Below, piece after piece: positions 16,019 to 34,280 of a stretch of 64,000 nucleotides of DNA. Numbering within the stretch: the first letter of the stretch is position 1; each line of letters starts with the position of its first letter. Position numbers and translations under genes: made by a program. The stretch is taken from contig MEUB01000027.1 of NCBI GenBank assembly GCA_001771535.1, positions 20,601 to 84,600 on the forward strand. Direction: 5' to 3'. The DNA comes from a candidate division WOR-1 bacterium RIFOXYB2_FULL_37_13 (GTDB lineage Bacteria; Margulisbacteria; WOR-1; XYC2-FULL-46-14; XYC2-FULL-37-10). Below the pieces are notes generated by a model. The model worked only from the letters and a program-made list of their open reading frames with translations, was not told the origin of the DNA and made no database searches.

Positions 16019-16939
16019 TTAGATCCCCAACTTTTTTAATATTTTATTAGATATAGAATCAGAATCTAAACCTATTTTTCTCCTGACAAAATCCTGATCC
16101 CCGACATATTTTACGAAACAATCATTCACTCCAAAACATTTAATTCTAGCCATTATGCTTAATTTTGATAATGCTTCTAAAACAGCGGAACCAAACCCTC
16201 CAACAATTGAATGTTCTTCTATTGTAAAAATACACTTTGTTTTAGAGGCTGCAAAAGATATCGCTTTATAATCTATGGGTTTAACTGATGGCATGCTTAT
16301 TAAGTTAACGCTAATTCCCTTATCTTTTAAAATTTTAGCAGTATCCATTGCTGTTTTAAGCATATTACCGGTAGAAAAAATTGAAATATCATTGCCTTTA
16401 AAAATATGAATCGATTTGCCAAAAGAAAATTTTGGTTTTTTATCATGTAAGCGAGGTTCCCCGCTTTTCCCAATTCTTATGTAAGTGGGCCCTTTTTTCT
16501 TATATGCTTCAACAATACAAATTTCAGCTTCAATAGGATCTGCCGGACAAAAAACCTTCATATTTGGTATCGCCCTCATAATGGCAATATCCTCTACTGA
16601 TTGGTGAGTCGATCCTTCTTTTGCATAAGTAAGCCCTCCTCCTAAACCTATAAGAACAACATCCAGATTCTGATAGCACAAATCTATTCGTATTTGCTCA
16701 AAACATCTCATCGAAACAAATGGGGCAAAGGTATAAAGAAAACATCTTTTGCCCGATAATGCCATGCCGGCTGAAACACCTACCATATTTGCCTCAGAAA
16801 TTCCGACATTCAAAAATTGTTTTGGCAATTCCTTTTCAAAATCTTCGAAAACTGAAAAGCCCATATCAGCAGATAAGAGCATAACATTTTTATCTTTCAG
16901 CGCTATTTTCTTAATTGAAGTTACAACTGAGTTTCTCAC
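16019..16939 (-). CDS. Transketolase, C-terminal (pyrimidine-binding + C-terminal domain) subunit of a split transketolase
   Basis: 306 aa; GISEANMVGVSAGMALSGKR...; pairs with the N-terminal subunit with a 4-bp overlap. Confidence 0.8.
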   Translation of the reverse strand: MRNSVVTSIKKIALKDKNVMLLSADMGFSVFEDFEKELPKQFLNVGISEANMVGVSAGMALSGKRCFLYTFAPFVSMRCFEQIRIDLCYQNLDVVLIGLGGGLTYAKEGSTHQSVEDIAIMRAIPNMKVFCPADPIEAEICIVEAYKKKGPTYIRIGKSGEPRLHDKKPKFSFGKSIHIFKGNDISIFSTGNMLKTAMDTAKILKDKGISVNLISMPSVKPIDYKAISFAASKTKCIFTIEEHSIVGGFGSAVLEALSKLSIMARIKCFGVNDCFVKYVGDQDFVRRKIGLDSDSISNKILKKLGI

Positions 16940-17790
16940 TTAATTTTATCTCCAAAGTTACAAAGAGCTTTTTTGAATTCATCCTCTTTTGGTGATCTGT
17001 AATGCCACATCAATGAATCTTCCATAAAAGGAATACCCTTACAATGCACAGTCTTTGCAATGATCAATAAAGGTTTTTTTGATTTTATATTTGCTAAAGA
17101 ATTATATATTTGCAATATATTATGTCCGTCTATTTCTTTTACATTCCAATTGAATGCTTCCCATTTCCGTCTTAAAGGTTCAAGGCTTAAAACATCACTT
17201 GTCCGTCCATATCCTTGGAAACCATTCTTATCTAAAATAACGGTTAAATTATTCAATTTATGATGTGTTGCAAAAAGCGCTGCCTCCCAAATAGAACCTT
17301 CATCACATTCTCCGTCTCCAATAATCGTGTAAACAGAATATTTTTTATTATCTAATTTTGCGCTCAACGCCATGCCAGCCGCAATAGATAGCCCATGGCC
17401 TAAAGATCCCGTAGATGCCTCAATTCCAGGAACACTCCCAAAAACCGGATGTCCTGCCAGTCTCCCATTATTAGAATAATAAGTATTGAGAATTTTTTTA
17501 TTGAAAAATCCTAATTTAGACAAAATAACATATAGGGCAACACAAGCATGCCCCTTGCTTAAAACAAACCTATCCCTATCAGGAGAAACAGATTTTATCT
17601 TATTAACATTTAAAATCTCATAAAACAAAACAATTAAGATATCAACCAATGAATATGCACAACCAATATGCGAACTTTTAGATTTTGTTATAAGCTCTAA
17701 TATTTTCTTCCTCACTTCCATTGAAGTAAACGTAAGTTTATTGATTTTATTTTTCATATAATTCTTTTTTATTTTTTCTAAACCATTCAA
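16936..17790 (-). CDS. Transketolase, N-terminal TPP-binding subunit
   Basis: GHPVFGSVPGIEASTGSLGHGLSIAAGMA...IIGDGECDEGSIWEA is a TPP-binding signature. Confidence 0.8.
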   Translation of the reverse strand: MNGLEKIKKNYMKNKINKLTFTSMEVRKKILELITKSKSSHIGCAYSLVDILIVLFYEILNVNKIKSVSPDRDRFVLSKGHACVALYVILSKLGFFNKKILNTYYSNNGRLAGHPVFGSVPGIEASTGSLGHGLSIAAGMALSAKLDNKKYSVYTIIGDGECDEGSIWEAALFATHHKLNNLTVILDKNGFQGYGRTSDVLSLEPLRRKWEAFNWNVKEIDGHNILQIYNSLANIKSKKPLLIIAKTVHCKGIPFMEDSLMWHYRSPKEDEFKKALCNFGDKIK

Positions 17791-18730
17791 TATAAAGTTT
17801 TAATCCTTCATTTAAATCTATCGTGGGCTCCCAACCTAAAGTTTTCTTTATTTTATCAATATTAGCCTGCCAAAAAGCAGGTTCGCTTTCTCTTGAAGCT
17901 ACCTTGCCCCACAAACATTCATTGCGTTTCCCCATAATACTGCAAATTACATTTAAAATATATTGAACGGAATACTGCCTCCCACTAGAAATATTAAAAA
18001 TTTCACCATTAAGCTTTTTAGCCCCCAGAGAGTTAATTATCTTTAAATATGCATTAACAATATCATCTATAAAACAAAAATCTCTGACAGAAGATGGGTT
18101 TGCCAAATTTGGAATTTTATCCTCTAATAAAGGTTTAATAATTGAAGGAAAAAGTCTCCCTGGATCCTCAAAGTAACCATAAGCAGAAAACAATCTTATA
18201 GTTATAATATTTCTATCTGTTTTTTTAGCTGTTTTTTGGCAAAATAATGTAGTTGCTGCTTTTGAAAGACCATAATCATTAACAGGTTCTAGATAATCTG
18301 TCTCACGCATAGGCTTATTTTTAATTCCATATTCCGAAGAAGACCCTGTATTTATAAATAGTTTTCCATCTGTTTTCAAAAAAGCTTCTAAAAGATTAAT
18401 TGTGCCAAACAGATTAACTTGAAACATTCGTTGTAAATCTTGTTGATAATGATAGCCTCCATATACAGCAAGATGAATTATTATGTCAGGATTAATATCA
18501 CTTAAAACACTCGAAATTTTTTCTTTATCACTTAAATCAGCTTCATAAAACTTTATTTCATCAAATATTCCCCTCAATCTCCACAAATCAGAATCATTTT
18601 TTTTAATTGCATAAACTTTTGCTCCAAGATTTACCAATACACGAGCAATATTTGCGCCAACAAAGCCAGTCACTCCCGTTATTAATATCTTTTCTTTTCC
18701 AATAAAATTATTTTTTTCTGCCTCTTTCAT
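17747..18730 (-). CDS. NAD-dependent epimerase/dehydratase (extended SDR)
   Basis: ILITGVTGFVGANIARVL Rossmann motif; 327 aa. Confidence 0.8.
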   Translation of the reverse strand: MKEAEKNNFIGKEKILITGVTGFVGANIARVLVNLGAKVYAIKKNDSDLWRLRGIFDEIKFYEADLSDKEKISSVLSDINPDIIIHLAVYGGYHYQQDLQRMFQVNLFGTINLLEAFLKTDGKLFINTGSSSEYGIKNKPMRETDYLEPVNDYGLSKAATTLFCQKTAKKTDRNIITIRLFSAYGYFEDPGRLFPSIIKPLLEDKIPNLANPSSVRDFCFIDDIVNAYLKIINSLGAKKLNGEIFNISSGRQYSVQYILNVICSIMGKRNECLWGKVASRESEPAFWQANIDKIKKTLGWEPTIDLNEGLKLYIEWFRKNKKELYEK

Positions 18731-18748
18731 ATAATAATTATTCGAATA

Positions 18749-20086
18749 TTATTTATTAGCATTAGTTTTCATAAACTCATTTACCATTTTAACAATATAT
18801 TCCAACTTCTCTTTTGTCATCCCCGGATAAACCCCAACCCAAAAAGTATTATTCATAATTAAATCCGTATTTGTAAGTTTACCTACAACCCTATATCCCT
18901 TTTTAACCTTTCTCATTTCATCAAATGCCGGATGGCGAAGCATGTTGCCGGCAAAAAGCATTCGCGTTTGTATTTTACTATCCTCGAGATAATTGACGAT
19001 TTCTTCACGAGAAAATCCTGCATCAGGTTTTACAGTAATTAAAAACCCAAACCAACTGGGGTCTGAATCTTTCAGAGCTTTAGAAAATATAAGTTTATCG
19101 GAATATTTGCTTAATGCATCAAGTAAATATCTGTAATTTTTCTTTCTCGCCTCAATAAAGCCTAGAAGTTTATCTAATTGCGCACAGCCAATCGCAGCCT
19201 GCATATCGGTTACCTTTAAATTGTATCCAAAATGAGAATAGATATATTTATGGTCATAGCCATAAGGCAACTCTCCCAACTGCCATTTAAATCTTTTCTT
19301 GCAAGTATCATCCTTTCCACTCGGACACCAGCAATCACGACCCCAATCTCTAAAAGATTCAATAATACGCTTTAACTGAAGATTATTAGTTAAAAGAGCT
19401 CCGCCCTCTCCCATTGTTATGTGGTGAGGCGGATAAAAGCTGCAAGTGGCAATATCACCAAAAGTTCCCGTATATTTGCCTTTATATGTTGAGCCAAGAG
19501 AATCACAATTGTCTTCAATCAGCCATAAATTATGTTTCTTGCAATAGTTCTTAACTTTATCAATATCAAAAGGATTCCCTAAAGTATGAGCAATCATTAC
19601 AGCTTTTGTTTTTTTAGATAAAGCCTTTTCTAGCTTATCACAATCGATATTATAAGAAGGCAAAGTTACGTCAACAAAGACAGGAATAGCTCCAAATTGG
19701 ATAATAGGAGCAATTGTTGTTGGAAACCCTGCGGCAACTGTTATGACCTCATCTCCTCGCTTAATTTTTTTATTGCCAAGCTTAGGAGATGTTAAGGCCA
19801 TAAAAGCCAGAAGATTAGCAGAAGATCCAGAATTTGTTAAACTGCAATGCTTAACGCCAATGAAATCTGCCAATCTTTTTTCAAATTCCGCGGCATAACG
19901 GCCGGAAGTTAGCCAAAATTCAAGAGAGGAATCAACAAGATTGACAAGCTCTTTTTCATCATAAACGCGCCCGCCATAATTAACACGGGTTTCGCCTGGG
20001 ATAAAATCGGATTTTGATTGTGAAGCTTTATAATAATCTTTAACTTTGTTTAAAATTTCTTGTTTGAGTTTATTTTTTTTGTTCAT
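18749..20086 (-). CDS. ddhC: CDP-6-deoxy-D-xylo-4-hexulose-3-dehydrase (E1; DdhC/RfbH), PMP-dependent, with [2Fe-2S]-binding Cys motif
   Basis: Extensive collinear similarity to RfbH: FWLTSGRYAAEFEKRLADFIGVKHCSLTNSGSSANLLA, GDEVITVAAGFPTT, HNLWLIEDNCDSLGSTY, SFYPPHHITMGEGGA, ESFRDWGRDCWCPSGKDDTCKKRF, GYDHKYIYSHFGYNLKVTDMQAA. Confidence 0.85.
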   Translation of the reverse strand: MNKKNKLKQEILNKVKDYYKASQSKSDFIPGETRVNYGGRVYDEKELVNLVDSSLEFWLTSGRYAAEFEKRLADFIGVKHCSLTNSGSSANLLAFMALTSPKLGNKKIKRGDEVITVAAGFPTTIAPIIQFGAIPVFVDVTLPSYNIDCDKLEKALSKKTKAVMIAHTLGNPFDIDKVKNYCKKHNLWLIEDNCDSLGSTYKGKYTGTFGDIATCSFYPPHHITMGEGGALLTNNLQLKRIIESFRDWGRDCWCPSGKDDTCKKRFKWQLGELPYGYDHKYIYSHFGYNLKVTDMQAAIGCAQLDKLLGFIEARKKNYRYLLDALSKYSDKLIFSKALKDSDPSWFGFLITVKPDAGFSREEIVNYLEDSKIQTRMLFAGNMLRHPAFDEMRKVKKGYRVVGKLTNTDLIMNNTFWVGVYPGMTKEKLEYIVKMVNEFMKTNANK

Positions 20087-20152
20087 AATTATCTCCCAAG
20101 TTGTCCTGATTTACCAGGCTAATATTTTGTTTTTATCCTTTTTCTGAATAAT

Positions 20153-21250
20153 TCAAGGCTTATAAAGTTGCCGTTGATCCGGAGTTATAAAATCTTCTTT
20201 TGTAAATACTTCTGAATATGGCACCGGTATTGGTTTGCCATATATTCTTTTTGCTATATATTTATCAATAAAGTTTCTATCTTCAGCAATCCAACATGTA
20301 TCACAATATTGTCCAAACTGTTTAATATTTAAGCCCCGGTCAATAATATCTTTTAAGGGTTCCTCAAAAAAGTTTCCAAGAGAAGTATGAATGTATGGGC
20401 ATGGCATTACATCTCCGTATTTTGTAATTGAAACCATTCTTTTGACAGCAATACAGCCCAACTCAACACCGTAAGAGGGAGTTAAATGTGTAAACACATT
20501 ATGTTTTTTCTCCAATTCTCTCATGTAATCCATATCCGCTCTATCAACCAGACTGCTAAAATTCCCCTCCCAAGCCCCAACTGGCTTTGCATATGATACA
20601 AAAACCCCAACCCCCTTATCATTAAAAAACTTTAAAAATTCAATAAATTCTTGCGATCTGACTCTCTGCTTTGTAACTACAGTTTGTATAATAATCTTTA
20701 ACCCGGCATTCAAGGCCGCATCAACCGCCCTTAACGCCTTTTCATGAGATTTTGCTTTTCGCCTGAACTGATCATGTTCATCAGCTGAAAGACTGTCAAT
20801 ACTAAGTTGGATTTTATCAACTCCTATACTTTTTAAATGTTCTGCTCTCTTTTCATCTAACAACCAACCATTCGTATCAGAAGTTATGTAAAATTTTTGT
20901 GGATCAATAGCATTCACCAACTCATCAAAATCAGGAAAAACCAAAGGTTCTCCACCTGTAATAACAAGGTGTGCAAGCCCCATTTCATCTGCCTGCCGCG
21001 AAAGCTCCTTAACATCATTAATGGTAAAAACCCTGCCATCTTTTCTACCCTGGAACCTTTTTATGCAACAATGTTCACAGACAAAATTACATGTATAATC
21101 ATACTGAAATTGAATTATTGCGATACTTTCCTTGTTTTTAATTTTCTCATCATATTTCAGGATTTTTTCATACACCTGTGGTTTTTCTTTTTTTAGCAAA
21201 AACCTGCCTGCCTCTTCTTGAGAATTCAATTGCCCTTTTTGATTCGACAT
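20153..21250 (-). CDS. Radical SAM enzyme with C-terminal SPASM/twitch-like Cys-rich domain
   Basis: CNFVCEHC (CxxxCxxC) at about residue 55; C-terminal GCIAVKRMVSITKYGDVMPCPY and CDTC motifs. Confidence 0.75.
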   Translation of the reverse strand: MSNQKGQLNSQEEAGRFLLKKEKPQVYEKILKYDEKIKNKESIAIIQFQYDYTCNFVCEHCCIKRFQGRKDGRVFTINDVKELSRQADEMGLAHLVITGGEPLVFPDFDELVNAIDPQKFYITSDTNGWLLDEKRAEHLKSIGVDKIQLSIDSLSADEHDQFRRKAKSHEKALRAVDAALNAGLKIIIQTVVTKQRVRSQEFIEFLKFFNDKGVGVFVSYAKPVGAWEGNFSSLVDRADMDYMRELEKKHNVFTHLTPSYGVELGCIAVKRMVSITKYGDVMPCPYIHTSLGNFFEEPLKDIIDRGLNIKQFGQYCDTCWIAEDRNFIDKYIAKRIYGKPIPVPYSEVFTKEDFITPDQRQLYKP

Positions 21251-21297
21251 AATATTTTCCTCCTAATAATAATTTTATTTTAATCTATTCTTCAACG

Positions 21298-22437
21298 TTA
21301 AACAATCTCTAACCCAAAATCTCTCAATATAGAAACATTAATATTTTTATCAAATTTCTGCCTTACAATTCTTGCCACCTCATCGGAATAACTAGCTGCC
21401 ATAATAATTATTGCATCAACAGGATCAATATTGAGCATGACAGGAGCAACAATAGGGATATGCGTAGCTGAAGTGTATTTCCCCTGTTTAAATGGGGCAG
21501 AATCAACGACATATCTAATTTTATTTGATAAATCTGCCAAAGAAATAATTGCCAAAGCTTGATGGCTAGCCCCCCAAACAGCCACGCTCTTCTGCTTAAA
21601 TTGGCTGATATATCTGTCCATTTCATCTTTAATTTTAGTTTGATGCTGATAAAAAGAAGAAAGATCCATTCTTCTTCCTTTTTTTACAGTGGCAGAAATA
21701 ATAAAATCATGCCAAATCTCACTGCAATCAATAATGTCAAAACCATTCAAATGCAATGTTGTCGTTAATGTTTTTTTTGTAAAATAAAAAATATGATCAG
21801 GAATAAACTCAGAAAAAAGTTTATTGCGTAAAATCATATCAAAATTAGGCACTTCAACTATTCCAATTGCATTAGGTGCCAAATTATTGTAAATTCCTTT
21901 TAATGCGGAATTTGGATCAGGAAAATGCTCAAAAAAGTTTAAAATAAAAAAAGCAGCAAACGGCGCTTGTTTTAATGTATAAGAACCATTGTCAATATAA
22001 CCCTGTTCTACCTTCAGCCCTTGGTTGATGCATTGCGCTACGGATTCGCTCAAATGTTCCAAACCATAAGCCTCTGCTCCACATTGTTGCATAATAGAAA
22101 GATATTCTCCCTTGCCACACCCAATTTCAATTATTTTTTGACCCTTAAGTGAATATTTTTTAAAAAAATCGCTGAATTGTTTTATTCTGAATTTTTCCAT
22201 GTCTTCAGAAAAAGCAGCAGCACGTATAACATCTTTATAATAAGCAACTGGCTCACTGTTTAGCTGTACTAACCTGCATCCCATGCATTCACAAATTTCC
22301 AAATCAATACCTTTTTCAGAGGAAAGTGCTGCTAAATCCGGTAAAAATTGAGCCGATTTAGGCATATTTTTATAATGCAATATAGGTTCTGCAAAAAAAT
22401 CATTCCCGCAGACTCTACAGCATTTGTTTTTTTTCAT
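21298..22437 (-). CDS. SAM-dependent methyltransferase with N-terminal Zn-ribbon, TylC3-like NDP-hexose C-methyltransferase architecture
   Basis: Probable start MKKNKCCRVCGNDF at 22437 (the ORF-track start at 22533 overlaps the upstream gene); central class I MT fold IIEIGCGKGEYL; roughly 100 aa C-terminal domain. Confidence 0.55.
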   Translation of the reverse strand: MKKNKCCRVCGNDFFAEPILHYKNMPKSAQFLPDLAALSSEKGIDLEICECMGCRLVQLNSEPVAYYKDVIRAAAFSEDMEKFRIKQFSDFFKKYSLKGQKIIEIGCGKGEYLSIMQQCGAEAYGLEHLSESVAQCINQGLKVEQGYIDNGSYTLKQAPFAAFFILNFFEHFPDPNSALKGIYNNLAPNAIGIVEVPNFDMILRNKLFSEFIPDHIFYFTKKTLTTTLHLNGFDIIDCSEIWHDFIISATVKKGRRMDLSSFYQHQTKIKDEMDRYISQFKQKSVAVWGASHQALAIISLADLSNKIRYVVDSAPFKQGKYTSATHIPIVAPVMLNIDPVDAIIIMAASYSDEVARIVRQKFDKNINVSILRDFGLEIV

Positions 22438-22438
22438 A

Positions 22439-22948
22439 TTAAATAAATTCCCTATACATTTCATTGTGAGCAGAAATAATGTTGCAAGGACAATTGCTGT
22501 GCCATAACCACTGGTTTGCATGAGGAGCCTCACTATTATATTTCAAGCTTTCATCAAGCTTATCAATTAAACGACATTGATATAAGAACGAAATAAAATG
22601 ACCCCTGACTTGCCTATCTTTTATAAGACACTCTTTTGTTGCCAAAGGAACAGGATTATAATCTACTAAAGCCCTAAGCTCATTTTTGGCTACTGCTTTT
22701 ATTCTATCAGCCAGAGTTTCCTTATATCGGATTATACCGCCAGGCAAATGCCATCCGGCAGAAGCAAATCCGTCATCACGCCAGGTTAAAAGTGTTCTAT
22801 TCTGCTCGTCTTTTATCAACAAATCTACATTAACAAGAGGTGTGATTTTACTTATAAAAAGAAATATTTCTTCAGGCAACCCTTTTGATGGGTTTCCAAT
22901 AAAAGATGACAAGAGTTCTATTGCCTGCGTAATTTCCATTGATTTCAT
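22439..22948 (-). CDS. NUDIX hydrolase (GDP-mannose mannosyl hydrolase / WcaH-like)
   Basis: WHLPGGIIRYKETLADRIKAVAKNELRA resembles a Nudix box; 169 aa. Confidence 0.5.
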   Translation of the reverse strand: MKSMEITQAIELLSSFIGNPSKGLPEEIFLFISKITPLVNVDLLIKDEQNRTLLTWRDDGFASAGWHLPGGIIRYKETLADRIKAVAKNELRALVDYNPVPLATKECLIKDRQVRGHFISFLYQCRLIDKLDESLKYNSEAPHANQWLWHSNCPCNIISAHNEMYREFI

Positions 22949-23817
22949 ATTAGTTCACTTTTTTCAATAACATGCTGATTTGCGCTATACCATTGATATA
23001 AAGAATTTATCGATTCGTCGATAGGACTGAATTTAAAATCTTTCAATTCAGCCATAAGCCGCGAATTATCTCCACTATATTCTCTAGTAGTTTCGGATTT
23101 AATTATTATCTTTAGTTTTTTCCCGGATATCCCGACAACTTTTTCAGCCAGAGTTTTAAAATCAAGAGCCTGCCCTGAACAAACGTTATAAGCCTGTTCA
23201 CGCATCTTATTTTCAATAAACCATTTAACAATTCTCGCCAAATCATCTATATATAAAAAATCATAAACAACATTCTGATTAATAATAATTGGAAGATCCA
23301 TAATTGCACAGCAACAGGCTTTGGAAATAAAACGATACCGCCAATCTTCATATTTGCCAAATACTGAAAATACTCTAAGATTGTATATGTTACTGTTTAA
23401 CTGCGCGTATTTGTTCATTAAATATTTTGAAAATCCATATTGGTCGGAAGGAACATATTTATCAAAATACTCTTCTTTCATTCTAGGAATCCATTTTTCA
23501 CGCCCAAACTCCGCCCCCGAACCAAAATAAATCATTTTGCCAAAAAAGTCTTTGCAACGCGCTAGGTTAAAAAACATTCTAAGATTGTTTTCCAAAACCT
23601 TGGCTGGATCTTTGGTTGAATATTTTGGCGCAGGGTCATACGTGGATGAATGGAGAACAATATCAAATTGGTTTTTCTTAATATATTCAAAAACATTTAA
23701 ATAATCCAAAAGGTCAAGCTCATTACTGCTGCAAGAGATAATTGTATAATCATCCTTTAATTGCTCAAATAGATTTCTTGCAATAAACCCATTACCGCCG
23801 GTTATCAATATTTTCAC
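22945..23817 (-). CDS. NAD-dependent epimerase/dehydratase/reductase (SDR)
   Basis: MKILITGGNGFIARNLFEQL Rossmann motif. Confidence 0.75.
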   Translation of the reverse strand: MKILITGGNGFIARNLFEQLKDDYTIISCSSNELDLLDYLNVFEYIKKNQFDIVLHSSTYDPAPKYSTKDPAKVLENNLRMFFNLARCKDFFGKMIYFGSGAEFGREKWIPRMKEEYFDKYVPSDQYGFSKYLMNKYAQLNSNIYNLRVFSVFGKYEDWRYRFISKACCCAIMDLPIIINQNVVYDFLYIDDLARIVKWFIENKMREQAYNVCSGQALDFKTLAEKVVGISGKKLKIIIKSETTREYSGDNSRLMAELKDFKFSPIDESINSLYQWYSANQHVIEKSELI

Positions 23818-23838
23818 AATATCATTTCCTTTTGATAT

Positions 23839-24900
23839 TCATCCTTTTAAATATTCACCCGCTAAGTGCATATCACACTCTTTTGTACACTTAATCCCTT
23901 TTGCCAAATCATAGTGATTTTTTCTGAATTCATTATATTTTTCTCCGTTCCAGATATCATATAAACTATTTTCTTTCGCATTGCCTAAAATTATTTCATT
24001 ATTATAATCTTCCATACACATAACAACATCAGCATTGGATTTTATAGTCATTGACATCCATGGGTGCTTGCAAATTTCAGACCAATGGACAGAATTTGTG
24101 CCATGAAAATCCTTTCGATACCATTGTTGATCCTCACTCTTCAAATAAACATAAACATCTAAACCACAAAAAGCATCTTTAAGTTTTTGATATTCTTCTT
24201 TCTGCCAAGAATTATTTAAATCGAGCATTGTAATAATAATAGTTGTTTTATAGCCTTTTTGCTTTTTTATATTAATTAATTGCAAAATTTTATTATAACT
24301 ATCTGTAAAATTTGAGGCTTCACCCCTAATTTCTTTATGCTTTTCATCATCAACACTCTCGATTGAATATTTTATATAACTTAAGCCATTTTCAAACATC
24401 TTAATAGTGTTTTCAATATTGATGTTGGCAGGATTACAACTAAAATAGGAATAAAACCCCTTTTCAGTAAGCAACTTTACATATTCTCCCATATTCTTAT
24501 CTAATAAAGGATCTCCATATCCATGAAGTTGGATAACTTTCGGTATTATGTACAAAAAGAAATTGTTTTCGCTTTGTTCATCTTTCTCGATATTGTAGTT
24601 TTCTTTTACAAATCTCTCCCAATCTGACCATTCTTCTTTGGACCATGGACGCAATTGATTCAATATATTTATAAACACTTCCCTATTGATAGTTTCAATT
24701 TTTCTCGTCATTCTGGTTGTTCGAGGGCACATTTTGCATTTCATATTGCAAGCATTCGTTGTTTCAATGTTATAAACAACAGGATCCTTACTTCGGAATT
24801 GCTCAAATTGATCAATGATGTAATTTTTATCGAATTTTTCCCCATTCAACATTTCCTTGGAAAATTTATAAGCTTTCATAAAAAAATTAATATCAAACAT
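23839..24900 (-). CDS. Radical SAM enzyme (second copy) with C-terminal Cys-rich SPASM-like region
   Basis: CNMKCKMC (CxxxCxxC); C-terminal ICKHPW...VVMCMEDY...KCTKECD. Confidence 0.7.
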   Translation of the reverse strand: MFDINFFMKAYKFSKEMLNGEKFDKNYIIDQFEQFRSKDPVVYNIETTNACNMKCKMCPRTTRMTRKIETINREVFINILNQLRPWSKEEWSDWERFVKENYNIEKDEQSENNFFLYIIPKVIQLHGYGDPLLDKNMGEYVKLLTEKGFYSYFSCNPANINIENTIKMFENGLSYIKYSIESVDDEKHKEIRGEASNFTDSYNKILQLINIKKQKGYKTTIIITMLDLNNSWQKEEYQKLKDAFCGLDVYVYLKSEDQQWYRKDFHGTNSVHWSEICKHPWMSMTIKSNADVVMCMEDYNNEIILGNAKENSLYDIWNGEKYNEFRKNHYDLAKGIKCTKECDMHLAGEYLKG

Positions 24901-24936
24901 TTTTTACCTCCAATAATTTCGATTTATTGTATTTTC

Positions 24937-25914
24937 TTAGCACGATTTGTCTACCTTAAATGAAAGCGTCTGTAATGCAATTTCAAGCGCATTTATCCCA
25001 TCATCAAGCGTACAAATCGGCTCGGTTTCACGGCGAATCACAGATAAGAAATGGCGCATTTCATCAATAAACAATGAATTCCTTTCGAAATATTTTGGCG
25101 CTTCAATAAATTCCCAAGCAGAATGATTCGGTCTATAAATTGATAACTGGCCATCTGCATTATTCCAACGGATTGTGCCATTTGTTCCAATAACTTCCAA
25201 GTGGTGAGTTGTTGGCCTTTGTATATAATCAAGATGCACAGATCCAAATGCTCCATTAGGAAATTTCAAGTATACATCCGCAACATCTTCAACATTGATA
25301 CCTAGATCTCCTACTGTATCTGTATGCGCCCACATGAATTCAGGTTTTCCAAATAACCAGCTTAAATAATCAAATGGATGGCAAAGGGTTAAAACAACTC
25401 CACCGCCCAAGTCTGGACGAGCTGCATAACTGTTCCGAAAATCTTCCCATGGATGCCAGTCAGGCAAATATTCTCCCCAATGAACATTAATAGAAACTAT
25501 TCTACCAATTTCTCCTTGGGAAATCATATTAGAAGCAATCTTAAGTGTAGGATGAAATCGATACTGAAAGCCAACTAAAAATTGTCCTCCACCATGCTTC
25601 AAGGCTGCTTTTAATTTATCTATCCCTGCTAATGAATCAGAAATAGGCTTTTCGATTAAAATATGGCAACCAGCTTCTGCAGCCGGAATTGCAATATCAA
25701 AATGTAATGAAGTCGGATTTGATATTATTACAGCATCTGGTTCATGCTTTAAAGCCGAATAAATATTAGTTTCAATTGGAAATTCTTTGAATTCATCATC
25801 AATTGGAGAGGCAACCTTATTACGGCATAAAACAATATCTTTTTCTCCAAGAGAAATTAAATTCTTCAAATGCCTGCGCCCAATAGATCCAAGCCCAACA
25901 ACAACAAATTTCAT
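24937..25914 (-). CDS. Gfo/Idh/MocA family NAD(P)-dependent oxidoreductase
   Basis: MKFVVVGLGSIGRRHLKNL N-terminal Rossmann motif; EKPIS motif. Confidence 0.8.
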   Translation of the reverse strand: MKFVVVGLGSIGRRHLKNLISLGEKDIVLCRNKVASPIDDEFKEFPIETNIYSALKHEPDAVIISNPTSLHFDIAIPAAEAGCHILIEKPISDSLAGIDKLKAALKHGGGQFLVGFQYRFHPTLKIASNMISQGEIGRIVSINVHWGEYLPDWHPWEDFRNSYAARPDLGGGVVLTLCHPFDYLSWLFGKPEFMWAHTDTVGDLGINVEDVADVYLKFPNGAFGSVHLDYIQRPTTHHLEVIGTNGTIRWNNADGQLSIYRPNHSAWEFIEAPKYFERNSLFIDEMRHFLSVIRRETEPICTLDDGINALEIALQTLSFKVDKSC

Positions 25915-25941
25915 TTTATATTTTTTCCTTATTTAAAAACC

Positions 25942-27747
25942 CTATTCTTCAAGCGGAGGAATAATCATATTTTCAAGAAATTCCTTTCTATCCAAAAAAG
26001 GCCATAAATCTTCTAATGGTTTTGAAACCATTGTTCCATCCTGTTTTTGAATAGTACTCATGCTGGGAGCCCTTGGTTCATCTGGAGGAGTAAGAATTTC
26101 GCAAACTACGGTTCCCGCCATATTCAAAACTTCCCGAAGTTTGTCAGCCAGCTTTTCTTGGCTGGTTATTTTTTTGATTTTAAGTCCATATGCTTGCGCA
26201 ACTTTACAAATATCCGGAAGTTCAAGCCCGCTGGTAGAATCAGCCCCTGTCAACCTATTAAAATATCTCATTTGTGAAGTGCGTATAGATGAATATCCCT
26301 GATTATTTAATACAAATATTTTTATTGGCAAGTTAAGTCTGGCTAAAGTTTCAAACTCTTGAATATTAAATTGAATGCCACCATCACCATCTACACAAAT
26401 AGTCCGTTTTTTATCACTTGCAAGACATCCTCCAATACTGGCCGGTAACCCATTCCCCATCGAACCTAATGCTGTTGTATTCAAAACTCTTTGACCCTTT
26501 TTTGCTTTAAAAGCAAGTAAAAATATCTCAATACCAGCACCAGAACTGCAGGGGATCACAATATCATCGCTATTTAGCTCATCTGAAAGAACCTCAGTAA
26601 AAACATATGTACTGACAAGTTTCTCTTCTCTATATTCTAGCAATACAACCGGATATTTCTTCTTCCATTCTTTACATCTAATAAGCCAATTTGAACGGTT
26701 CTTTGGCAGAATGCTATTTAGCTGTTTTATCATTTCTTGAATAAATATTTTAACATCAGAACAAATTGGAACATCTATTTTAGTCTGCATTTTATTAATT
26801 TCTGCCGGATCTATGTCTATCATGATTTTTTTGGCTGCTCGCGCAAATTTTTCATGGGAATACCCCGTTACAACGGTATCCAACCTGGCGCCAATGCTAA
26901 TTAAACAATCTGAATTTTGAAGGGCGAAGTTTGCGCCGCGTGGAGCTACAGGGCCTGGCCGGCCAACCAATAAATCATATGAATCTGATAAAATATCAAG
27001 GGCAGGCCATGTTAACAATACTGGTATTTTTAATTGCTCAATCAAAAAAAGTGCATCCTTTATTGCCCCTGATAAGCGCGTTCCATTCCCTAACAATAGT
27101 ATAGGCCTTTCAGACTTATTTAATAATTCAATTGTTTTTGAAACTAGATCAGATATATTATTTCCCTGCGATTGGTTGATAATATTTTTTTCATCAAAGC
27201 CTTCTAGTTGATCAATATCAATTATTGAAGCTTGAACATCTAAAGGGATATCAATCCATACAGGCCCTGGCCTGCCTGATTTTGTCAGATAAACCGCTTT
27301 TTCTAAATGAAAGCGGATGCTACTAGGATCCATAATAGTAACAGAATATTTGGTAATAGATTTTACAATCGGAACAATATTAACTTCTTGTACGCCGTTT
27401 TGCCTTACACCCAAATTGCCAATAAGATCAGACCTTTTAACCTGTCCTGAAATAAACATACACGGGGTAGAATCCAACCATGCCCCTGCTACTCCGGTAA
27501 TAGCATTGGTTCCCCCAGGACCAGTTGTTACTAATGCTACGCCCATGTTATTTTTTGCAATTCTTGCATAAGTTTCTGCTGCCATTGCGCTAGCCTGTTC
27601 ATGTTGATTGCAAACAAATTCAATATTTTTATTGTGGCCAATAGAATCATTCAAGTGCATAGCACCCCCACCCGGAACCATAAACACATGCTTAACTCCC
27701 TGGTCAACTAAAAATTTAACAACATAATCAGATAATTTGATTTTCAT
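25942..27747 (-). CDS. TPP-dependent enzyme of the acetolactate-synthase large-subunit family (YerE-like branched-sugar C-C ligase candidate)
   Basis: 601 aa; N-terminal pyrimidine-binding domain with VFMVPGGGAMHLND; C-terminal TPP-binding GSMGNGLPASIGG...DGDGGIQFNIQE. Confidence 0.8.
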   Translation of the reverse strand: MKIKLSDYVVKFLVDQGVKHVFMVPGGGAMHLNDSIGHNKNIEFVCNQHEQASAMAAETYARIAKNNMGVALVTTGPGGTNAITGVAGAWLDSTPCMFISGQVKRSDLIGNLGVRQNGVQEVNIVPIVKSITKYSVTIMDPSSIRFHLEKAVYLTKSGRPGPVWIDIPLDVQASIIDIDQLEGFDEKNIINQSQGNNISDLVSKTIELLNKSERPILLLGNGTRLSGAIKDALFLIEQLKIPVLLTWPALDILSDSYDLLVGRPGPVAPRGANFALQNSDCLISIGARLDTVVTGYSHEKFARAAKKIMIDIDPAEINKMQTKIDVPICSDVKIFIQEMIKQLNSILPKNRSNWLIRCKEWKKKYPVVLLEYREEKLVSTYVFTEVLSDELNSDDIVIPCSSGAGIEIFLLAFKAKKGQRVLNTTALGSMGNGLPASIGGCLASDKKRTICVDGDGGIQFNIQEFETLARLNLPIKIFVLNNQGYSSIRTSQMRYFNRLTGADSTSGLELPDICKVAQAYGLKIKKITSQEKLADKLREVLNMAGTVVCEILTPPDEPRAPSMSTIQKQDGTMVSKPLEDLWPFLDRKEFLENMIIPPLEE

Positions 27748-28304
27748 TAAACACCTATAGTTATAGTTTCTTTTGCTTTCATTTTTTGTTCCAATAGCAT
27801 ATCTAAGAATTCACGAACAGCCCCATCTCCACCCCTATGTCGAGTTATAAAGTCAACACTTTTTAAAACTGAGGGATGCGCATTAGGAGGGGCAACTGAC
27901 AAGCCAACAATTTTCATTGCAGGCAAATCATTGACGTCATCACCAATAAAGCATATTTCCGATAAATCAAAGTTATTCCTTTTGGCAAATTCAATAATCG
28001 ATTTTGCCTTATCTTTACAGCCTTTATATATTTCTTCAATCTTAAGTTTTTGTGCATATCTCTCCACAATTGCCATGCCTGAGACACTGCTTTCACCCGA
28101 CATTAGAGCAATTTTTATGCCTGCTTTTTGGGCAAAAGGAATCCCTGTTATATCTGCAAAACAAAAACGTTTTAGTTCAACATTATTTGAGTCCCACCAA
28201 AATGTTCCATCTGTCAAAACACCATCAACATCCATAACAACCGCTTTTATTTGATCAATTTTTATATTTTCAAGCATTTTATATCCCCCAAAGCTATCAG
28301 ACAT
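27747..28304 (-). CDS. HAD-IIIA phosphatase, KdsC family (3-deoxy-ulosonate-phosphate phosphatase-like)
   Basis: VVMDVDGVLTDG (HAD motif I) and FIGDDVNDLPAM (motif IV); 185 aa. Confidence 0.75.
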   Translation of the reverse strand: MSDSFGGYKMLENIKIDQIKAVVMDVDGVLTDGTFWWDSNNVELKRFCFADITGIPFAQKAGIKIALMSGESSVSGMAIVERYAQKLKIEEIYKGCKDKAKSIIEFAKRNNFDLSEICFIGDDVNDLPAMKIVGLSVAPPNAHPSVLKSVDFITRHRGGDGAVREFLDMLLEQKMKAKETITIGV

Positions 28305-29166
28305 TTCTAAGTCTTTTTATAATGGCTTCTTCCTTTGGTACAATCCTTTTTATGCCATCTCCCATAGACTTTTCAACCAATCGAATATCTCTCATTAAAC
28401 GATTTAATCCGTTTGGTTCCAAAGATGCCGCATGGTCAGATCCCCACATGGCTCTATCAAGAGTAATATGGCGCTCTATAACACAAGCTCCCATAACAGA
28501 AGCCGCCACAGATGTAGCCAGCCCTGTTTCATGCCCTGAATACCCAACAGGAACTTGATATCTATCTTTTAAAAAAGGTATTACCCTAAGATTCAAGTCT
28601 TCATAGCTTGCAGGATAAGCACTGCAACAATGGAGCAAGATTAAATCATTCTTCTGCAATATATCGACAGCATGATCAAGTTGTTCTAATGAAGACATGC
28701 CAGTTGATAGGATTATAGATCTTCCTTGTTTTCTTACATGTTTCAACAAAGCATCATCGGTTAATTTGGCAGCAGGAATTTTGTAACATGGGATATTGTA
28801 TTTCTCAAGAAAATCAACTGAATCCATATCCCAGGCAGATGCAAACCATGTTATCCCTATCTCTTTGCAAAATCTCTCAATTTCATCATATTCATTCTTT
28901 TCAAATTCAACCCTTTTGCGATATTCAAAATATGTCATATTGCCCCATGGGGTTTCACGAACAATATCTCGCTGACTAACTGGAACACATAATTCTGGAT
29001 TGCGTTTCTGGAATTTTACAGCATTACATCCTGATGCAGCCGCAACAGTGATTAATTTTTTTGCAATATTCACATCCCCGTTATGATTTATGCCAATTTC
29101 TGAAATAAAATAAGCAGGCTGTCCATCTCCAACTTTTGTATTTCTAATATTTACCGTATTATCCAT
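28297..29166 (-). CDS. NeuB-family PEP-dependent sugar synthase (N-acetylneuraminate / ulosonic acid synthase-like), TIM-barrel only; no SAF/antifreeze C-terminal domain
   Basis: YFISEIGINHNGDVNIAKKLITVAAASGCNAVKFQKR matches the NeuB N-terminal signature; 289 aa versus about 340 aa for canonical NeuB/PseI. Confidence 0.7.
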   Translation of the reverse strand: MDNTVNIRNTKVGDGQPAYFISEIGINHNGDVNIAKKLITVAAASGCNAVKFQKRNPELCVPVSQRDIVRETPWGNMTYFEYRKRVEFEKNEYDEIERFCKEIGITWFASAWDMDSVDFLEKYNIPCYKIPAAKLTDDALLKHVRKQGRSIILSTGMSSLEQLDHAVDILQKNDLILLHCCSAYPASYEDLNLRVIPFLKDRYQVPVGYSGHETGLATSVAASVMGACVIERHITLDRAMWGSDHAASLEPNGLNRLMRDIRLVEKSMGDGIKRIVPKEEAIIKRLRNV

Positions 29167-29219: not shown

Positions 29220-30308
29220 TCATGTTTTATTTACCTTTATGCCTTTAGAATATAATTCTATTTGATTATAACAAACTCTCCTCAGGTCTTTTCTTTCTTT
29301 ATAAGCTCTAGTCCACTCAACAATCTTATCAAGTGCTTTTTCCAAATCCCATTTAGGATTCCAATCTAATCTTTTTTTAACCTTAGTACAATCTAATTTT
29401 AAATAATGCGCCTCATGAGGATGCATCCCTTTATCAATTTCATAAGAAGCAGCTTCTCCCCATTTAAAGCATAATTTCTTAACAATCCATAAAACGGATC
29501 TTGAATCTTTCTCATCAGAACCAAAGTTCCAAGCTTGTGAATATTTAGCTCCATTTTCATATAATTTTTCAGCCAAAAGAAGATATCCGAAAAGTGGTTC
29601 CAAAACATGTTGCCATGGTCGTATTGCTTTTGGGTTTCTAATTGTAATTTTTTTATTGCTTAAAATTGCTCTCACAAAATCAGGGATTAGACGATCTTGC
29701 GCCCAATCCCCACCACCGACAACATTCCCCGCCCTAGCAGTCGCAATTCCAACTCCATGAGCAGAATATTCTTTTGGGTTAAAAAATGAATTTCTATAAG
29801 CGGCTGTTACAATTTCAGAGCATGCTTTGCTGCTGGAATAAGGATCATATCCCCCTAAAGGTTCGTCTTCGCAATAGCCTGCAGCTCTTTCTTTGTTTTC
29901 ATAACATTTATCTGTAGTTACATTTATAAAAGCTCGAACAGTTTTACAGATTCTTACGGCTTCCAATAAATTTACTGTTCCCATTACATTTGTAGAATAA
30001 GTATCTACTGGATTTTTATAAGAATCACGAACCAAAGGTTGCGCCGCCATATGAATCACAATATCAGGTTTTGCCTTAAACAAAGCTTTTTGAAGATTTT
30101 CTAAATCCCTTATATCTCCGATAACAGAAGTTACAAGTTCTTCTATCTTGCATAATTTAAATAAACTGGGATTTGTAGGTGGATTTAATGCATAACCTGT
30201 AACTTTTGCTCCAAGCAAGTTAAGCCATAAAGAAAGCCATGCGCCTTTAAAGCCTGTATGGCCCGTTAAGAAGACTCTTTTATCTTTCCAGAAATTTTTA
30301 TTAATCAT
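29220..30308 (-). CDS. ddhB: CDP-glucose 4,6-dehydratase
   Basis: NFWKDKRVFLTGHTGFKGAWLSLWL is the RfbG/DdhB signature; probable start at the internal Met (30308), overlapping the upstream gene by 4 bp. Confidence 0.85.
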   Translation of the reverse strand: MINKNFWKDKRVFLTGHTGFKGAWLSLWLNLLGAKVTGYALNPPTNPSLFKLCKIEELVTSVIGDIRDLENLQKALFKAKPDIVIHMAAQPLVRDSYKNPVDTYSTNVMGTVNLLEAVRICKTVRAFINVTTDKCYENKERAAGYCEDEPLGGYDPYSSSKACSEIVTAAYRNSFFNPKEYSAHGVGIATARAGNVVGGGDWAQDRLIPDFVRAILSNKKITIRNPKAIRPWQHVLEPLFGYLLLAEKLYENGAKYSQAWNFGSDEKDSRSVLWIVKKLCFKWGEAASYEIDKGMHPHEAHYLKLDCTKVKKRLDWNPKWDLEKALDKIVEWTRAYKERKDLRRVCYNQIELYSKGIKVNKT

Positions 30309-31672
30309 TTTTTTTCTTGCTTGCTCGTTATTAATATCTTCCAAAATCCACCTTTATCAGGACCAATTCTCTTAATAATCCCCTTACTCTTGAGCTTCAT
30401 TAAATTCTCCTCGGTTTTACGCAAAGAAATCCCAATGGCATTTGCAATTTTTACGGCAGAAATATTGGACTCTTTATAAATCAGATTGACTATTTTTTTC
30501 TGATTTGGTGTTAATCTTTCACCGACCTTTTCACCGACCTTTTCACCGACCTTTTCACCGACCTTTTCACCGACCTTACTAAAAAATGTTACAGAAAAGA
30601 TTCCCGATTCTTCAAGAAACTCGGGTTCCGGTAGTCCCTGTTTCTTACAACCAGCAATTATCTTAAGCGTTCCGCTCCCCCAACTTTCAATAAAACCAGC
30701 TTTATAAAATATGTCAGCCAACAGTACATTTCTTGGCTTCGATATGTGTTTTTGCTTCAATTTGATGATTGGAAGCTCTTTTGGCATTTTGCCTTCATTC
30801 ATAATAATAAGCTTTTCATCATATATTCTTATTTGCACCGCGGAAGTTCCGGTATAATCCCTATGAACAAGAGAATTTAAGACCGCTTCTCTAAGCGCAT
30901 TATATGGATATTCAAGCTTTTCTCTTCGATGGATGCCTTCATAGGAAATTCGACTTACCAAATACTTTGTCTTTAACATATTCATAACAACTTCAACTTG
31001 ATTAAATAGGTTTCCTTCAACAACATCGCTGGTTAATATTTCGCTATCAGACTTGAATTTCCCTATTTTTACATGGGCTTGCGGATAAAAGGCCTGAACT
31101 TGCCTGCCAAATAAGAGAAGAGCAGCTCTTTTGAAACGTTTATTTTTCAATAAGTTTAATTTATTAAGTATATCTACAGGAGCCTTTTCGTTTTCAATAT
31201 ATGGAAGCCTATCTAATGATAATTTTTTAAAATCTTTAATTGTTTTATCGTCTATATCAGTCATCTTTGCGCCTTCTTCAATAACTTCGTCCCATGTTTG
31301 ACCTGATTTTTTCAAAAGAAAATTTGCTAATTCATTTCCGGAAAGCTCTAGAACAACGCTTCCGCTCCTAATGTAATATTTGCCTTCATAAGAGATAGGA
31401 ACGGACACAGGTTTTATCTTTAATACAATATAATATTTTTTTGATTTTTGTCTAATTAAAATATCAGGTATTATCCCCAATTTATTATTTACTTTATTAG
31501 GAACAATTTCCAATATTTTTTTTGGATCAGGAACTCCAACAATAACACCCTTGTCATCTATTCCAATAAATACCTCTCCTCCATTAGTATTAGCAAAAGC
31601 ACATACTACTCTCAAGATCGAATCATTCCATTCTCTTTTAAATTCTATATTTTGTTTTTCAATGTTTTTCAT
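30305..31672 (-). CDS. AlbA_2 (Schlafen-like) + HATPase_c_4-like + winged-helix protein, paralogue of 14641..15996; contains a (GEKV)5 tandem peptide repeat linker
   Basis: IEFKREWNDSILRVVCAFANTNGGEVFIGI; LREAVLNSLVHRDY; C-terminal wHTH; repeat KVGEKVGEKVGEKVGEKVGER. Confidence 0.65.
   Translation of the reverse strand: MKNIEKQNIEFKREWNDSILRVVCAFANTNGGEVFIGIDDKGVIVGVPDPKKILEIVPNKVNNKLGIIPDILIRQKSKKYYIVLKIKPVSVPISYEGKYYIRSGSVVLELSGNELANFLLKKSGQTWDEVIEEGAKMTDIDDKTIKDFKKLSLDRLPYIENEKAPVDILNKLNLLKNKRFKRAALLLFGRQVQAFYPQAHVKIGKFKSDSEILTSDVVEGNLFNQVEVVMNMLKTKYLVSRISYEGIHRREKLEYPYNALREAVLNSLVHRDYTGTSAVQIRIYDEKLIIMNEGKMPKELPIIKLKQKHISKPRNVLLADIFYKAGFIESWGSGTLKIIAGCKKQGLPEPEFLEESGIFSVTFFSKVGEKVGEKVGEKVGEKVGERLTPNQKKIVNLIYKESNISAVKIANAIGISLRKTEENLMKLKSKGIIKRIGPDKGGFWKILITSKQEKK
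30515..30578. repeat. 12-bp tandem repeat x5 (ttttcaccgacc) inside CDS 30305..31672, encoding a (GEKV)n linker
   Basis: Read directly: tttcaccgaccttttcaccgaccttttcaccgaccttttcaccgaccttttcaccgacctt. Confidence 0.9.

Positions 31673-32505: not shown

Positions 32506-34280
<1,775 letters not shown>

Follow-up and report, generated by a model that had tools for sequence, protein, structure and literature searches.

A SAF-less NeuB-family synthase coupled to a YerE-like carboligase: a candidate phosphoenolpyruvate-dependent route to branched CDP-deoxy-sugars in a WOR-1 bacterium

The acyl-branched sugars erwiniose, caryophyllose and gastriose have been brought together in one "unifying scheme", in which a pyruvate aldolase forms a 4-hydroxy-2-keto acid, a YerE-like enzyme uses this acid as donor and a reductase acts last to complete the branch (Steitz et al., 2022; PMC9306805). 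YerE-like enzymes, which belong to the thiamine diphosphate (ThDP) carboligases, decarboxylate a 2-keto acid and attach the residue at the C4 ketone of cytidine diphosphate (CDP)-4-keto-3,6-dideoxyglucose (PMC9306805; PMC12247030). The clusters covered by the scheme are ErwI/J-ErwE-ErwF for erwiniose, MMAR_2331-MMAR_2332 for caryophyllose, MygI-MyGE-MygF for gastriose and YerE/YerF for yersiniose, the published suppliers of the keto acid being HpcH-family (MMAR_2331) and BphI-like (ErwI) aldolases (PMC9306805). The donors range from C4 to C8: ErwE, MMAR_2332 and MyGE accept 4-hydroxy-2-keto acids, ErwE refuses pyruvate and MyGE took linear keto acids up to C8 (PMC9306805). Here we describe a related gene arrangement in a stretch of 64,000 nucleotides of contig MEUB01000027.1 from the candidate division WOR-1 bacterium RIFOXYB2_FULL_37_13 (the whole stretch is called the window below), where the gene of a NeuB-family synthase that lacks the SAF domain and that of a KdsC-like phosphatase directly precede a YerE-like ThDP gene. 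We propose, with a probability of about 0.62, that synthase and phosphatase supply a keto-acid acyl donor, which the ThDP enzyme would graft onto a CDP-deoxy-sugar as a long branch.

The whole window is one continuous surface-polysaccharide locus with a G+C content of ~32%, and every substantial open reading frame (ORF), including all those for which window coordinates are given here, lies on the minus strand. All ORFs of at least 120 aa were scanned with Pfam, and NCBIfam cut-offs were used for equivalog and subfamily calls. The NeuB-like gene (28297..29166, 289 aa), with a GGAG sequence 5' of its ATG, is followed by the gene of the haloacid dehalogenase (HAD) phosphatase (27747..28304, 185 aa) and by that of the 601-aa ThDP enzyme (25942..27747). 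The stop of the first overlaps the start of the second by 8 nt, ATGTCTGA, and the HAD stop codon shares 1 nt with the ThDP start codon (TAATG), so that the three genes form one translationally coupled string. An earlier reading of this DNA (the original prediction) had called the ORFs of the NeuB-like protein, the HAD and a split transketolase, all of which were confirmed at their coordinates and on the minus strand, and had proposed the coupling of the first two, which the 8-nt overlap bears out; the second overlap and the ThDP gene itself were not part of it. The trio is placed between RfbF/RfbG and RfbH of the CDP-sugar pathway.

The ThDP enzyme, composed of TPP_enzyme_N, M and C domains, falls under every NCBIfam cut-off for acetohydroxyacid synthase (AHAS), the best being TIGR00118 with 391 bits against 538. 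Its best match in the PDB is 8rph, the YerE-like carboligase JanthE (395 bits, aligned over the full length including the C-terminal tail), followed by 5ahk (274 bits), presumably PpYerE, and then by true AHAS (257 bits). Placed by way of these two structures, the enzyme is most likely YerE-like rather than an AHAS. Elsewhere the family includes longer members: in four loci (9224-11800 in L135, as well as L138, L140 and L146) the YerE-like enzyme reaches ~850 aa through an unannotated N-terminal extension of ~260 aa, and its gene is preceded by a conserved gene of ~185 aa of unassigned family.

The comparison that started from the ThDP enzyme provides the strongest argument. The profile of 16 aligned ThDP proteins was used to fetch 80 metagenome loci, 76 of which had a ThDP ORF, and any candidate for keto-acid formation encoded no more than four genes away from that ORF was counted as a supplier. 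A short NeuB was found in 16/76 loci, with a KdsC-type HAD in 9 of them; a NeuB-cupin fusion of about 505 aa occupied 13/76, an HpcH/HpaI aldolase 7/76 and an HMGL-like protein or aldolase, taken as BphI type, 3/76, each of these with a KdsC-type HAD in 0 loci. The HAD is thus restricted to short-NeuB loci and absent with aldolases and NeuB-cupin fusions. A NeuB gene of one form or the other is found within this distance in 29/76 of these YerE-like loci, proportions that, given the seeds of the search, are not natural frequencies. Two supplier kinds never occur together (0/76), and none of these loci contains a CMP-transferase homologue (CMP, cytidine monophosphate). In the window the supplier position next to the ThDP gene is filled by the NeuB family, in the same place where HpcH or HMGL aldolases stand elsewhere, the families being mutually exclusive. 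Judged from these gene neighbourhoods, the pattern is one of non-orthologous replacement at one pathway position and, because the supplier families interchange at that position, the NeuB-like protein and the HAD would supply the donor of the ThDP enzyme. As for the NeuB-cupin fusion, in its 13 loci (for example 7871-9406 in L112) it usually stands just upstream of the YerE-like ThDP gene, and its C-terminal cupin part has a weak D-lyxose-isomerase-like match. The lack of a KdsC-type HAD beside it suggests an isomerase-coupled route using unphosphorylated aldoses.

The reverse comparison, starting from the NeuB-like protein, was based on a scan of GTDB genomes that returned 80 loci, of which about 57 were SAF-less NeuB loci of other genomes; ORFs were called within 8 kb on each side of NeuB and clustered, and the common neighbour families were named by Pfam. 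Two exclusive contexts were found: 19 SAF-less NeuB loci have only a ThDP gene, 22 only a gene of the CMP-transferase family CTP_transf_3, 0 both and 17 neither (CTP_transf_3 in 0/19 ThDP-linked loci vs 22/39, Fisher p = 9.7e-6). In the 19 loci the ThDP gene encodes ~600 aa and usually adjoins NeuB, with a KdsC-type HAD between them in 9/19, and RfbF/RfbG/RfbH, FkbM methyltransferases, a GT2 and a GFO oxidoreductase are often present. RfbF/RfbH are enriched in the ThDP-linked loci (10/19 vs 4/39, p = 8e-4). The NeuB-(HAD)-ThDP arrangement with RfbF/G/H is also found in loci labelled Elusimicrobia, Smithella, Acidobacteriota, Planctomycetales and Chloroflexia, among others. In the Elusimicrobia locus (L003), which is without a transketolase, the gene order of the window from NeuB through RfbH is retained, save for swapped C-methyltransferase and NUDIX-like genes, together with the 8-nt NeuB/HAD overlap. 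A GT2 closes many NeuB-ThDP loci (17968-19359 in the Smithella locus L001, and related Smithella and Acidobacteriota loci), in several of them with a gene for a small GtrA-like membrane protein after it, and some have a PMT_2/TPR protein in the vicinity. This suggests that in such loci a carrier of the polyprenyl-phosphate type takes the branched sugar to a GT-C transferase in the periplasm. The other context, in which the CTP_transf_3 gene usually adjoins NeuB, includes (in six of its loci and others) a class-IV aminotransferase, a radical-SAM/SPASM protein of ~270 aa, Methyltransf_23, AP_endonuc_2 and adh_short, and appears to be an uncharacterised pathway to a CMP-ulosonic acid; four loci (L021, L022, L023 and L055) encode the CMP-transferase as a fusion with a KdsC-like HAD.

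The NeuB-like protein of the window carries PF03102 as its sole Pfam domain (274 bits, residues 38-273), and its chain ends 16 aa past this domain. In keeping with the original prediction of a NeuB-family synthase without the C-terminal antifreeze-like domain, Pfam detected no SAF domain in its 289 aa. The profile check proposed at that stage gave a divided answer: the NeuB domain is present, but the protein falls under the NCBIfam equivalog cut-offs of both NeuB (TIGR03569, 263 vs 400) and PseI (TIGR03586, 217 vs 340). It matches an NCBI protein of the candidate division WOR-1 bacterium RIFOXYC2_FULL_37_10 with 100% identity. With the canonical NeuB/PseI/LegI enzymes, represented by Neisseria meningitidis NeuB (NmNeuB, 1xuz), it shares the TIM-barrel NeuB domain and the metal- and phosphoenolpyruvate (PEP)-binding residues. 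In fact, the alignment showed that the equivalents of NmNeuB E25, K53, Q55, K129, S154, Y186, S213, H215, E234, H236 and D247, which we take to be catalytic, metal-binding or PEP-binding positions, are all kept. Unlike the canonical enzymes, it lacks both the SAF domain, which in NmNeuB supplies Arg314, and an acidic residue at NmNeuB position 134. There the equivalent of E134 is a Lys (KIPAAK motif), as in its two closest relatives. Every SAF-containing homologue (23/23) has E or D at this position, where SAF-less ones usually have S, M or C; the acidic residue tracks the SAF domain and is replaced by a non-acidic one in nearly all SAF-less homologues, which makes it a possible sequence marker separating the two architectures.

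The best PDB match of the protein is 6ncs (150 bits), a Leptospira borgpetersenii "sialic acid synthetase" of 290 aa, with the same SAF-less architecture and length. This protein differs in retaining an Asp at the NmNeuB-134 position (KIASCD), where the window protein has a Lys. A grouping with the spore-coat SpsE proteins had been named as the outcome that would speak against a synthase, and the window protein was found in a distinct SAF-less clade apart from SpsE (1vli, 385 aa with SAF). Identity to the window protein is 44-83% within this clade and about 35-42% for SAF-containing homologues. Homologues at least 44% identical are without SAF and measure about 275-320 aa when unfused, with few longer ORFs or fusions, and those at most 42% identical have at least 335 aa and were taken as SAF-bearing. 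The database name currently attached to such SAF-less proteins is "N-acetylneuraminate synthase".

The phosphatase exceeds the cut-off of the KdsC/YrbI subfamily of C0 HAD phosphatases (TIGR01670, 138 bits, cut-off 107), which agrees with its earlier assignment to the KdsC family, and stays under those of the equivalogs at the level of 3-deoxy-D-manno-octulosonic acid (KDO or Kdo)-8-P and 2-keto-3-deoxynononic acid (KDN)-9-P phosphatases (NF007019, 130 vs 208; NF058599, 134 vs 180). Its best PDB matches are KdsC enzymes and structures of the KDN-9-P phosphatase BT1713 (94 bits). As to its active site, on which the earlier assignment had been made to depend, two recognisable HAD motifs are retained (DVDGVLTDG and GDDVND). 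The intact catalytic residues of the NeuB-like protein and these two motifs support the logic that had been proposed for the pair, a PEP-dependent synthase of a 3-deoxy-ulosonate phosphate acting with a phosphatase. The same pairing of a synthase with a C0 HAD of the YrbI family is known from BT1714/BT1713 of Bacteroides thetaiotaomicron (KDN-9-P synthase and phosphatase) and from KdsA/KdsC; unlike these, the window pair has no CMP-transferase partner and is coupled to a ThDP enzyme and, despite the BT1713 match, its HAD remains under the cut-offs of both phosphatase equivalogs. A connection of the SAF-less clade with BT1714 was also considered by way of the HAD in a Muribaculaceae locus and was rejected: this HAD is no BT1713 orthologue (67 bits), so that no BT1714 link can be claimed.

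The CDP-sugar genes around the trio are each above an NCBIfam equivalog cut-off. RfbF (31698..32483; TIGR02623, 336 bits, cut-off 300) is the glucose-1-phosphate cytidylyltransferase that makes CDP-glucose, RfbG (29220..30344; TIGR02622, 504 bits, cut-off 278) is the CDP-glucose 4,6-dehydratase, its true start lying probably downstream of the listed TTG, and RfbH/DdhC (E1; 18749..20086; NF011936, 763 bits, cut-off 423) is the CDP-6-deoxy-4-keto-glucose 3-dehydrase, which gives the 3,6-dideoxy-4-keto acceptor. With these identities, glucose-1-P would be converted into CDP-4-keto-3,6-dideoxy-D-glucose. In parallel, the SAF-less NeuB would condense PEP with a phosphorylated aldose to a 3-deoxy-2-ulosonate omega-phosphate, from which the KdsC-type HAD would strip the phosphate, and the pair would thus probably make a 3-deoxy-ulosonic acid that donates the acyl group for a CDP-linked branched sugar. 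Enzymes of the NeuB and KdsA type yield 3-deoxy-2-ulosonic acids; chemically these are 4-hydroxy-2-keto acids and therefore fit the donor class of YerE-like enzymes. By analogy with ErwE, MMAR_2332 and MyGE, the ThDP enzyme would decarboxylate it to an acyl-anion equivalent and join this to the CDP-sugar at its C4 ketone. The new side-chain ketone could then be reduced, in the manner of YerF, by an RmlD-like short-chain dehydrogenase/reductase (SDR) of 290 aa, SDR_b (22945..23817), placed by synteny. SDR_b is the best candidate for a YerF-type branch-ketone reductase because its orthologues (36-66% identity) directly follow the ThDP gene on its 3' side in 15 metagenome loci, which cover all supplier types, the HpcH aldolase included. 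A GFO/IDH/MocA oxidoreductase, two radical-SAM/SPASM enzymes and a C-methyltransferase would tailor the product, and the glycan would be exported by the flanking Wzm/Wzt transporter.

The proposed pathway has in common with the published clusters the RfbF/RfbG/RfbH genes, a YerE-like ThDP enzyme beside a proposed maker of a 4-hydroxy-2-keto acid, a candidate reductase and a CDP-activated product (PMC9306805). It differs in the supplier of the keto acid, which is an HpcH/HpaI or BphI/HMGL pyruvate aldolase in those clusters and would here be an irreversible PEP-dependent NeuB synthase with a KdsC-type phosphatase, and in the additional two radical-SAM/SPASM enzymes, GFO oxidoreductase and C-methyltransferase, as well as in its host, an uncultured WOR-1 bacterium. 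A literature search found no paper linking YerE to neuraminate synthase, the cluster survey of Krug et al. (2024) lying outside that search; this survey reportedly mined more than 200 YerE-like clusters and may have noted NeuB-type ones.

The original prediction had seen in the pair a candidate KDN/Kdo-like 3-deoxy-ulosonic acid sub-pathway and had remarked on the absence of a NeuA/KdsB-like cytidylyltransferase. Within the 64 kb this absence stands: no ORF of at least 120 aa matched CTP_transf_3 in Pfam, and when the window was searched by tblastn with 23 CMP-transferase sequences only the HAD domain responded, through CMP-transferase-HAD fusion proteins. If the acid were nonetheless CMP-activated by an enzyme encoded outside the window, for instance a housekeeping KdsB, it could enter the glycan as an ulosonic residue, perhaps as a chain terminator recognised by the C-terminal domain of Wzt. 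The synthase and KdsC-phosphatase logic of KdsA/KdsC and of the Bacteroides KDN pathway, the BT1713 KDN-9-P phosphatase among the PDB matches of the HAD, the 22 other SAF-less NeuB loci linked to a CMP-transferase and the fact that the window gives a view of 64 kb of the genome are all consistent with such a fate, but in those 22 loci the CMP-transferase is near NeuB, usually adjoining and sometimes fused to the HAD, and there is none in the window or in the 19 ThDP loci. This exclusivity (0/19 vs 22/39) argues against a free-standing glycosyl-donor pathway of the KDN/Kdo type, while the translational coupling of the HAD to the ThDP gene and the conserved NeuB-ThDP adjacency would be left without explanation; an ulosonic residue activated from elsewhere in the genome is therefore quite unlikely. 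The same comparative evidence favours what had been mentioned as an aside, namely that the product is "fed into the CDP pathway": if the donor is used as we propose, the finished sugar is already CDP-activated and no CMP-transferase is needed. In a further alternative the ulosonate would be an acceptor or a substrate rather than a donor, with the ThDP enzyme adding a pyruvate-derived hydroxyethyl group to its C2 ketone, or decarboxylating it to a 2-deoxy-aldose, and with the CDP-3,6-dideoxyhexose pathway running independently. Alpha-keto acids are the native acceptors of AHAS, and the ThDP enzyme is itself a member of the superfamily of AHAS-like decarboxylases (TIGR00118, 391 bits). It lies, on the other hand, under all AHAS cut-offs and nearer to YerE-like structures, its gene co-occurs with RfbF/RfbH, and the products of either reaction would find no activating enzyme in these loci. 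Moreover, a donor role agrees with the interchange between NeuB and pyruvate aldolases, which are known to provide the donors of YerE-like enzymes (PMC9306805), and both forms of this alternative are improbable. The idea that NeuB acts on an aldehyde derived from the CDP-sugar was found to be unsupported, as it leaves no role for a KdsC-type phosphatase and does not explain the aldolase interchange.

The two-subunit transketolase of the original prediction is indeed present, with an N-terminal (PP-domain) subunit (16936..17790; PF00456, Transketolase_N, 149 bits) and a C-terminal (Pyr and C domain) subunit (16019..16939; PF02779 and PF02780) whose ORFs overlap by 4 nt. The true start of the former is probably Met12 of the listed ORF, its homologues having 270-277 aa. 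The C subunit has as its best PDB match the split transketolase of C. hydrogenoformans (6yaj, 212 bits). It had been suggested that this enzyme is dedicated to the pair and provides the acceptor of the NeuB-like synthase (e.g., erythrose-4-P or ribose-5-P). It does lie in the same co-directional gene cluster as NeuB, C-subunit homologues occur in 2/80 of the YerE-like metagenome loci, and the equivalents of H26, H66, H100, D155, N185, E411 and H473 (ThDP/Mg-binding and catalytic) are intact. Of the residues R358, S385, H461 and R520, which in the Escherichia coli enzyme we assume to form the sugar-phosphate binding site, the first two appear to be kept, the equivalents of R358, S385 and H261 having been placed by eye from the HMMER alignment to 6yaj and the subunit termini. 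The phosphate-binding His is lost, however, H461 being replaced by Gly, and R520 is a Lys. In fact, the motif "ATHAG" that contains this His in 6yaj reads "GLGGG" in the window subunit and its examined homologues, and split transketolases of polysaccharide loci (16019-16939 of the window and L085-L087) show "G-[LI]-G-G-G" where housekeeping enzymes have "T-H-x-G", a change that hints at a different acceptor. Furthermore, the transketolase is in none of the 19 other genomic NeuB-ThDP loci (absent from 19/19), it lies nine genes from the NeuB-HAD pair, and three close homologues of its N subunit with sufficient flanking sequence (52-55% identical) sit in polysaccharide loci without NeuB or a YerE-like gene, among NDP-sugar (nucleoside diphosphate-sugar) enzymes, with an SDR, an aldo-keto reductase, a TylF methyltransferase, DegT and a PglF-like dehydratase or a GT2 as neighbours. 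A role as dedicated acceptor supplier is hence unlikely. The enzyme may be either a normal transketolase or one acting on NDP-keto-sugars, and together with the neighbouring SDR it is best treated as a separate sugar-tailoring module. It resembles, in its place among NDP-sugar-modifying genes, the split transketolases proposed for the hydroxyacetyl branching of keto sugars in miharamycin and amipurimycin; those published candidates, which are proposals only, all come from Streptomyces secondary-metabolite clusters, whereas the one described here is in a surface-polysaccharide locus (PMC12247030).

Several observations weigh against our proposal that the pair feeds the YerE-like enzyme. The E3 (DdhD-type) reductase partner of RfbH was not found in the 64-kb window or as a conserved neighbour. 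The class of the ThDP enzyme rests on its matches to JanthE and 5ahk rather than on an alignment to YerE, ErwE or MMAR_2332. Since the HAD is present in only 9/19 genomic NeuB-ThDP loci, a phosphorylated substrate is not universal. In a simple neighbour-joining tree the ThDP-linked NeuBs are polyphyletic, on several separate branches within the SAF-less clade, meaning that the linkage arose or moved several times. Lastly, the metagenome search was seeded from NeuB-linked ThDP enzymes, which inflates the NeuB share.

The remaining genes of the cassette include the proposed tailoring set. In transcription order, GDP-mannose dehydratase, an Fcl-like GDP-fucose synthase, Wzm, RfbF, an AlbA_2/Schlafen-type gene and RfbG precede the NeuB-like gene; after the HAD and the 601-aa ThDP enzyme come the GFO/IDH/MocA oxidoreductase, the first radical-SAM/SPASM enzyme, the RmlD-like SDR_b, the NUDIX-like protein, the sugar C-methyltransferase, the second radical-SAM/SPASM enzyme, RfbH, an extended SDR (SDR_a), the N and C subunits of the transketolase, a second AlbA_2 gene and Wzt. 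The GFO oxidoreductase (24937..25914; Pfam) comes after the ThDP gene in six other loci as well; in one of these, the Smithella locus, a HAD is fused to the oxidoreductase in a 495-aa product. The first radical-SAM/SPASM enzyme (23839..24900; Pfam) has orthologues 64-76% identical in the Smithella and Elusimicrobia loci, and the second (20153..21250; Pfam) has orthologues in five loci, that of Elusimicrobia among them. The small NUDIX-like protein (22439..22948), with a weak match to PF00293, is conserved in the Elusimicrobia locus and five metagenome loci. The sugar C-methyltransferase (21298..22533) is of the TylC3 type, with Methyltransf_13, 23 and 14 domains, and SDR_a (17747..18730; Pfam), of the epimerase/dehydratase type, is directly upstream of the transketolase. 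NCBIfam gave no specific name above cut-off for SDR_a, SDR_b, the GFO oxidoreductase, the C-methyltransferase or the NUDIX-like protein. The listed starts of the transketolase N subunit (a TTG), RfbG and the C-methyltransferase are probably somewhat too long, as their homologues are 10-25 aa shorter.

The cassette is flanked upstream by the ABC-2 permease Wzm (32506..33339; PF01061) and downstream by the ABC ATPase Wzt (13255..14565; PF00005 and PF14524, the Wzt_C domain being weak). Near its two ends lie two paralogous AlbA_2/Schlafen genes with HATPase_c_4 (30305-31672 and 14641-15996), 32% identical to each other, the former containing a winged-helix domain as well. Nothing speaks for a mobile cassette: direct repeats were sought over 13-34 kb with no meaningful result, with no flanking DNA repeats around the cassette, and the AlbA_2 genes are only 32% identical. 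A GDP-mannose 4,6-dehydratase and the Fcl-like synthase, below its equivalog cut-off (297 vs 500), are encoded at 33336-35333 and a GT10 fucosyltransferase-like gene at 10546-11559, and fucose or a related 6-deoxyhexose is probably a further constituent of the glycan. Among the upstream genes of the locus, 40637-42841 encodes a protein of 734 aa in which a zinc-type alcohol dehydrogenase domain is fused to a GFO/IDH/MocA oxidoreductase.

Taken to its furthest extent, the gene content could describe a cassette making a CDP-3,6-dideoxyhexose whose C4 chain is a C7-C8 polyhydroxyalkyl group from a Kdo- or KDN-type acid, a sugar of 13-14 carbons and thus larger than any described, which the radical-SAM enzymes and the C-methyltransferase would deoxygenate and C-methylate, the split transketolase adding a second two-carbon branch to an NDP-keto-sugar. 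This elaboration is speculative and unlikely to hold as a whole; if true, it would include the first such branch-adding transketolase reaction outside Streptomyces secondary metabolism. The best model, drawn from synteny and homology, is a PEP-dependent variant of the published acyl-branched-sugar scheme that would be widespread in uncultured bacteria. It would give the NeuB family a second role, as source of an acyl-anion donor for a ThDP carboligase instead of a CMP-activated glycosyl donor, and for annotation it provides a rule: a SAF-less NeuB beside a ThDP enzyme of ~600 aa and RfbF/G/H predicts a long-branched deoxy-sugar and not a sialic-acid-like residue. For biocatalysis, and directly for groups that study YerE-like enzymes, it would be of interest that chiral polyhydroxy 2-keto acids are made in an irreversible reaction driven by PEP and are passed to carboligases forming tertiary alcohols. 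The NeuB-ThDP arrangement is common among the YerE-like metagenome loci retrieved with NeuB-linked seeds (29/76), and many uncultured phyla harbour it.

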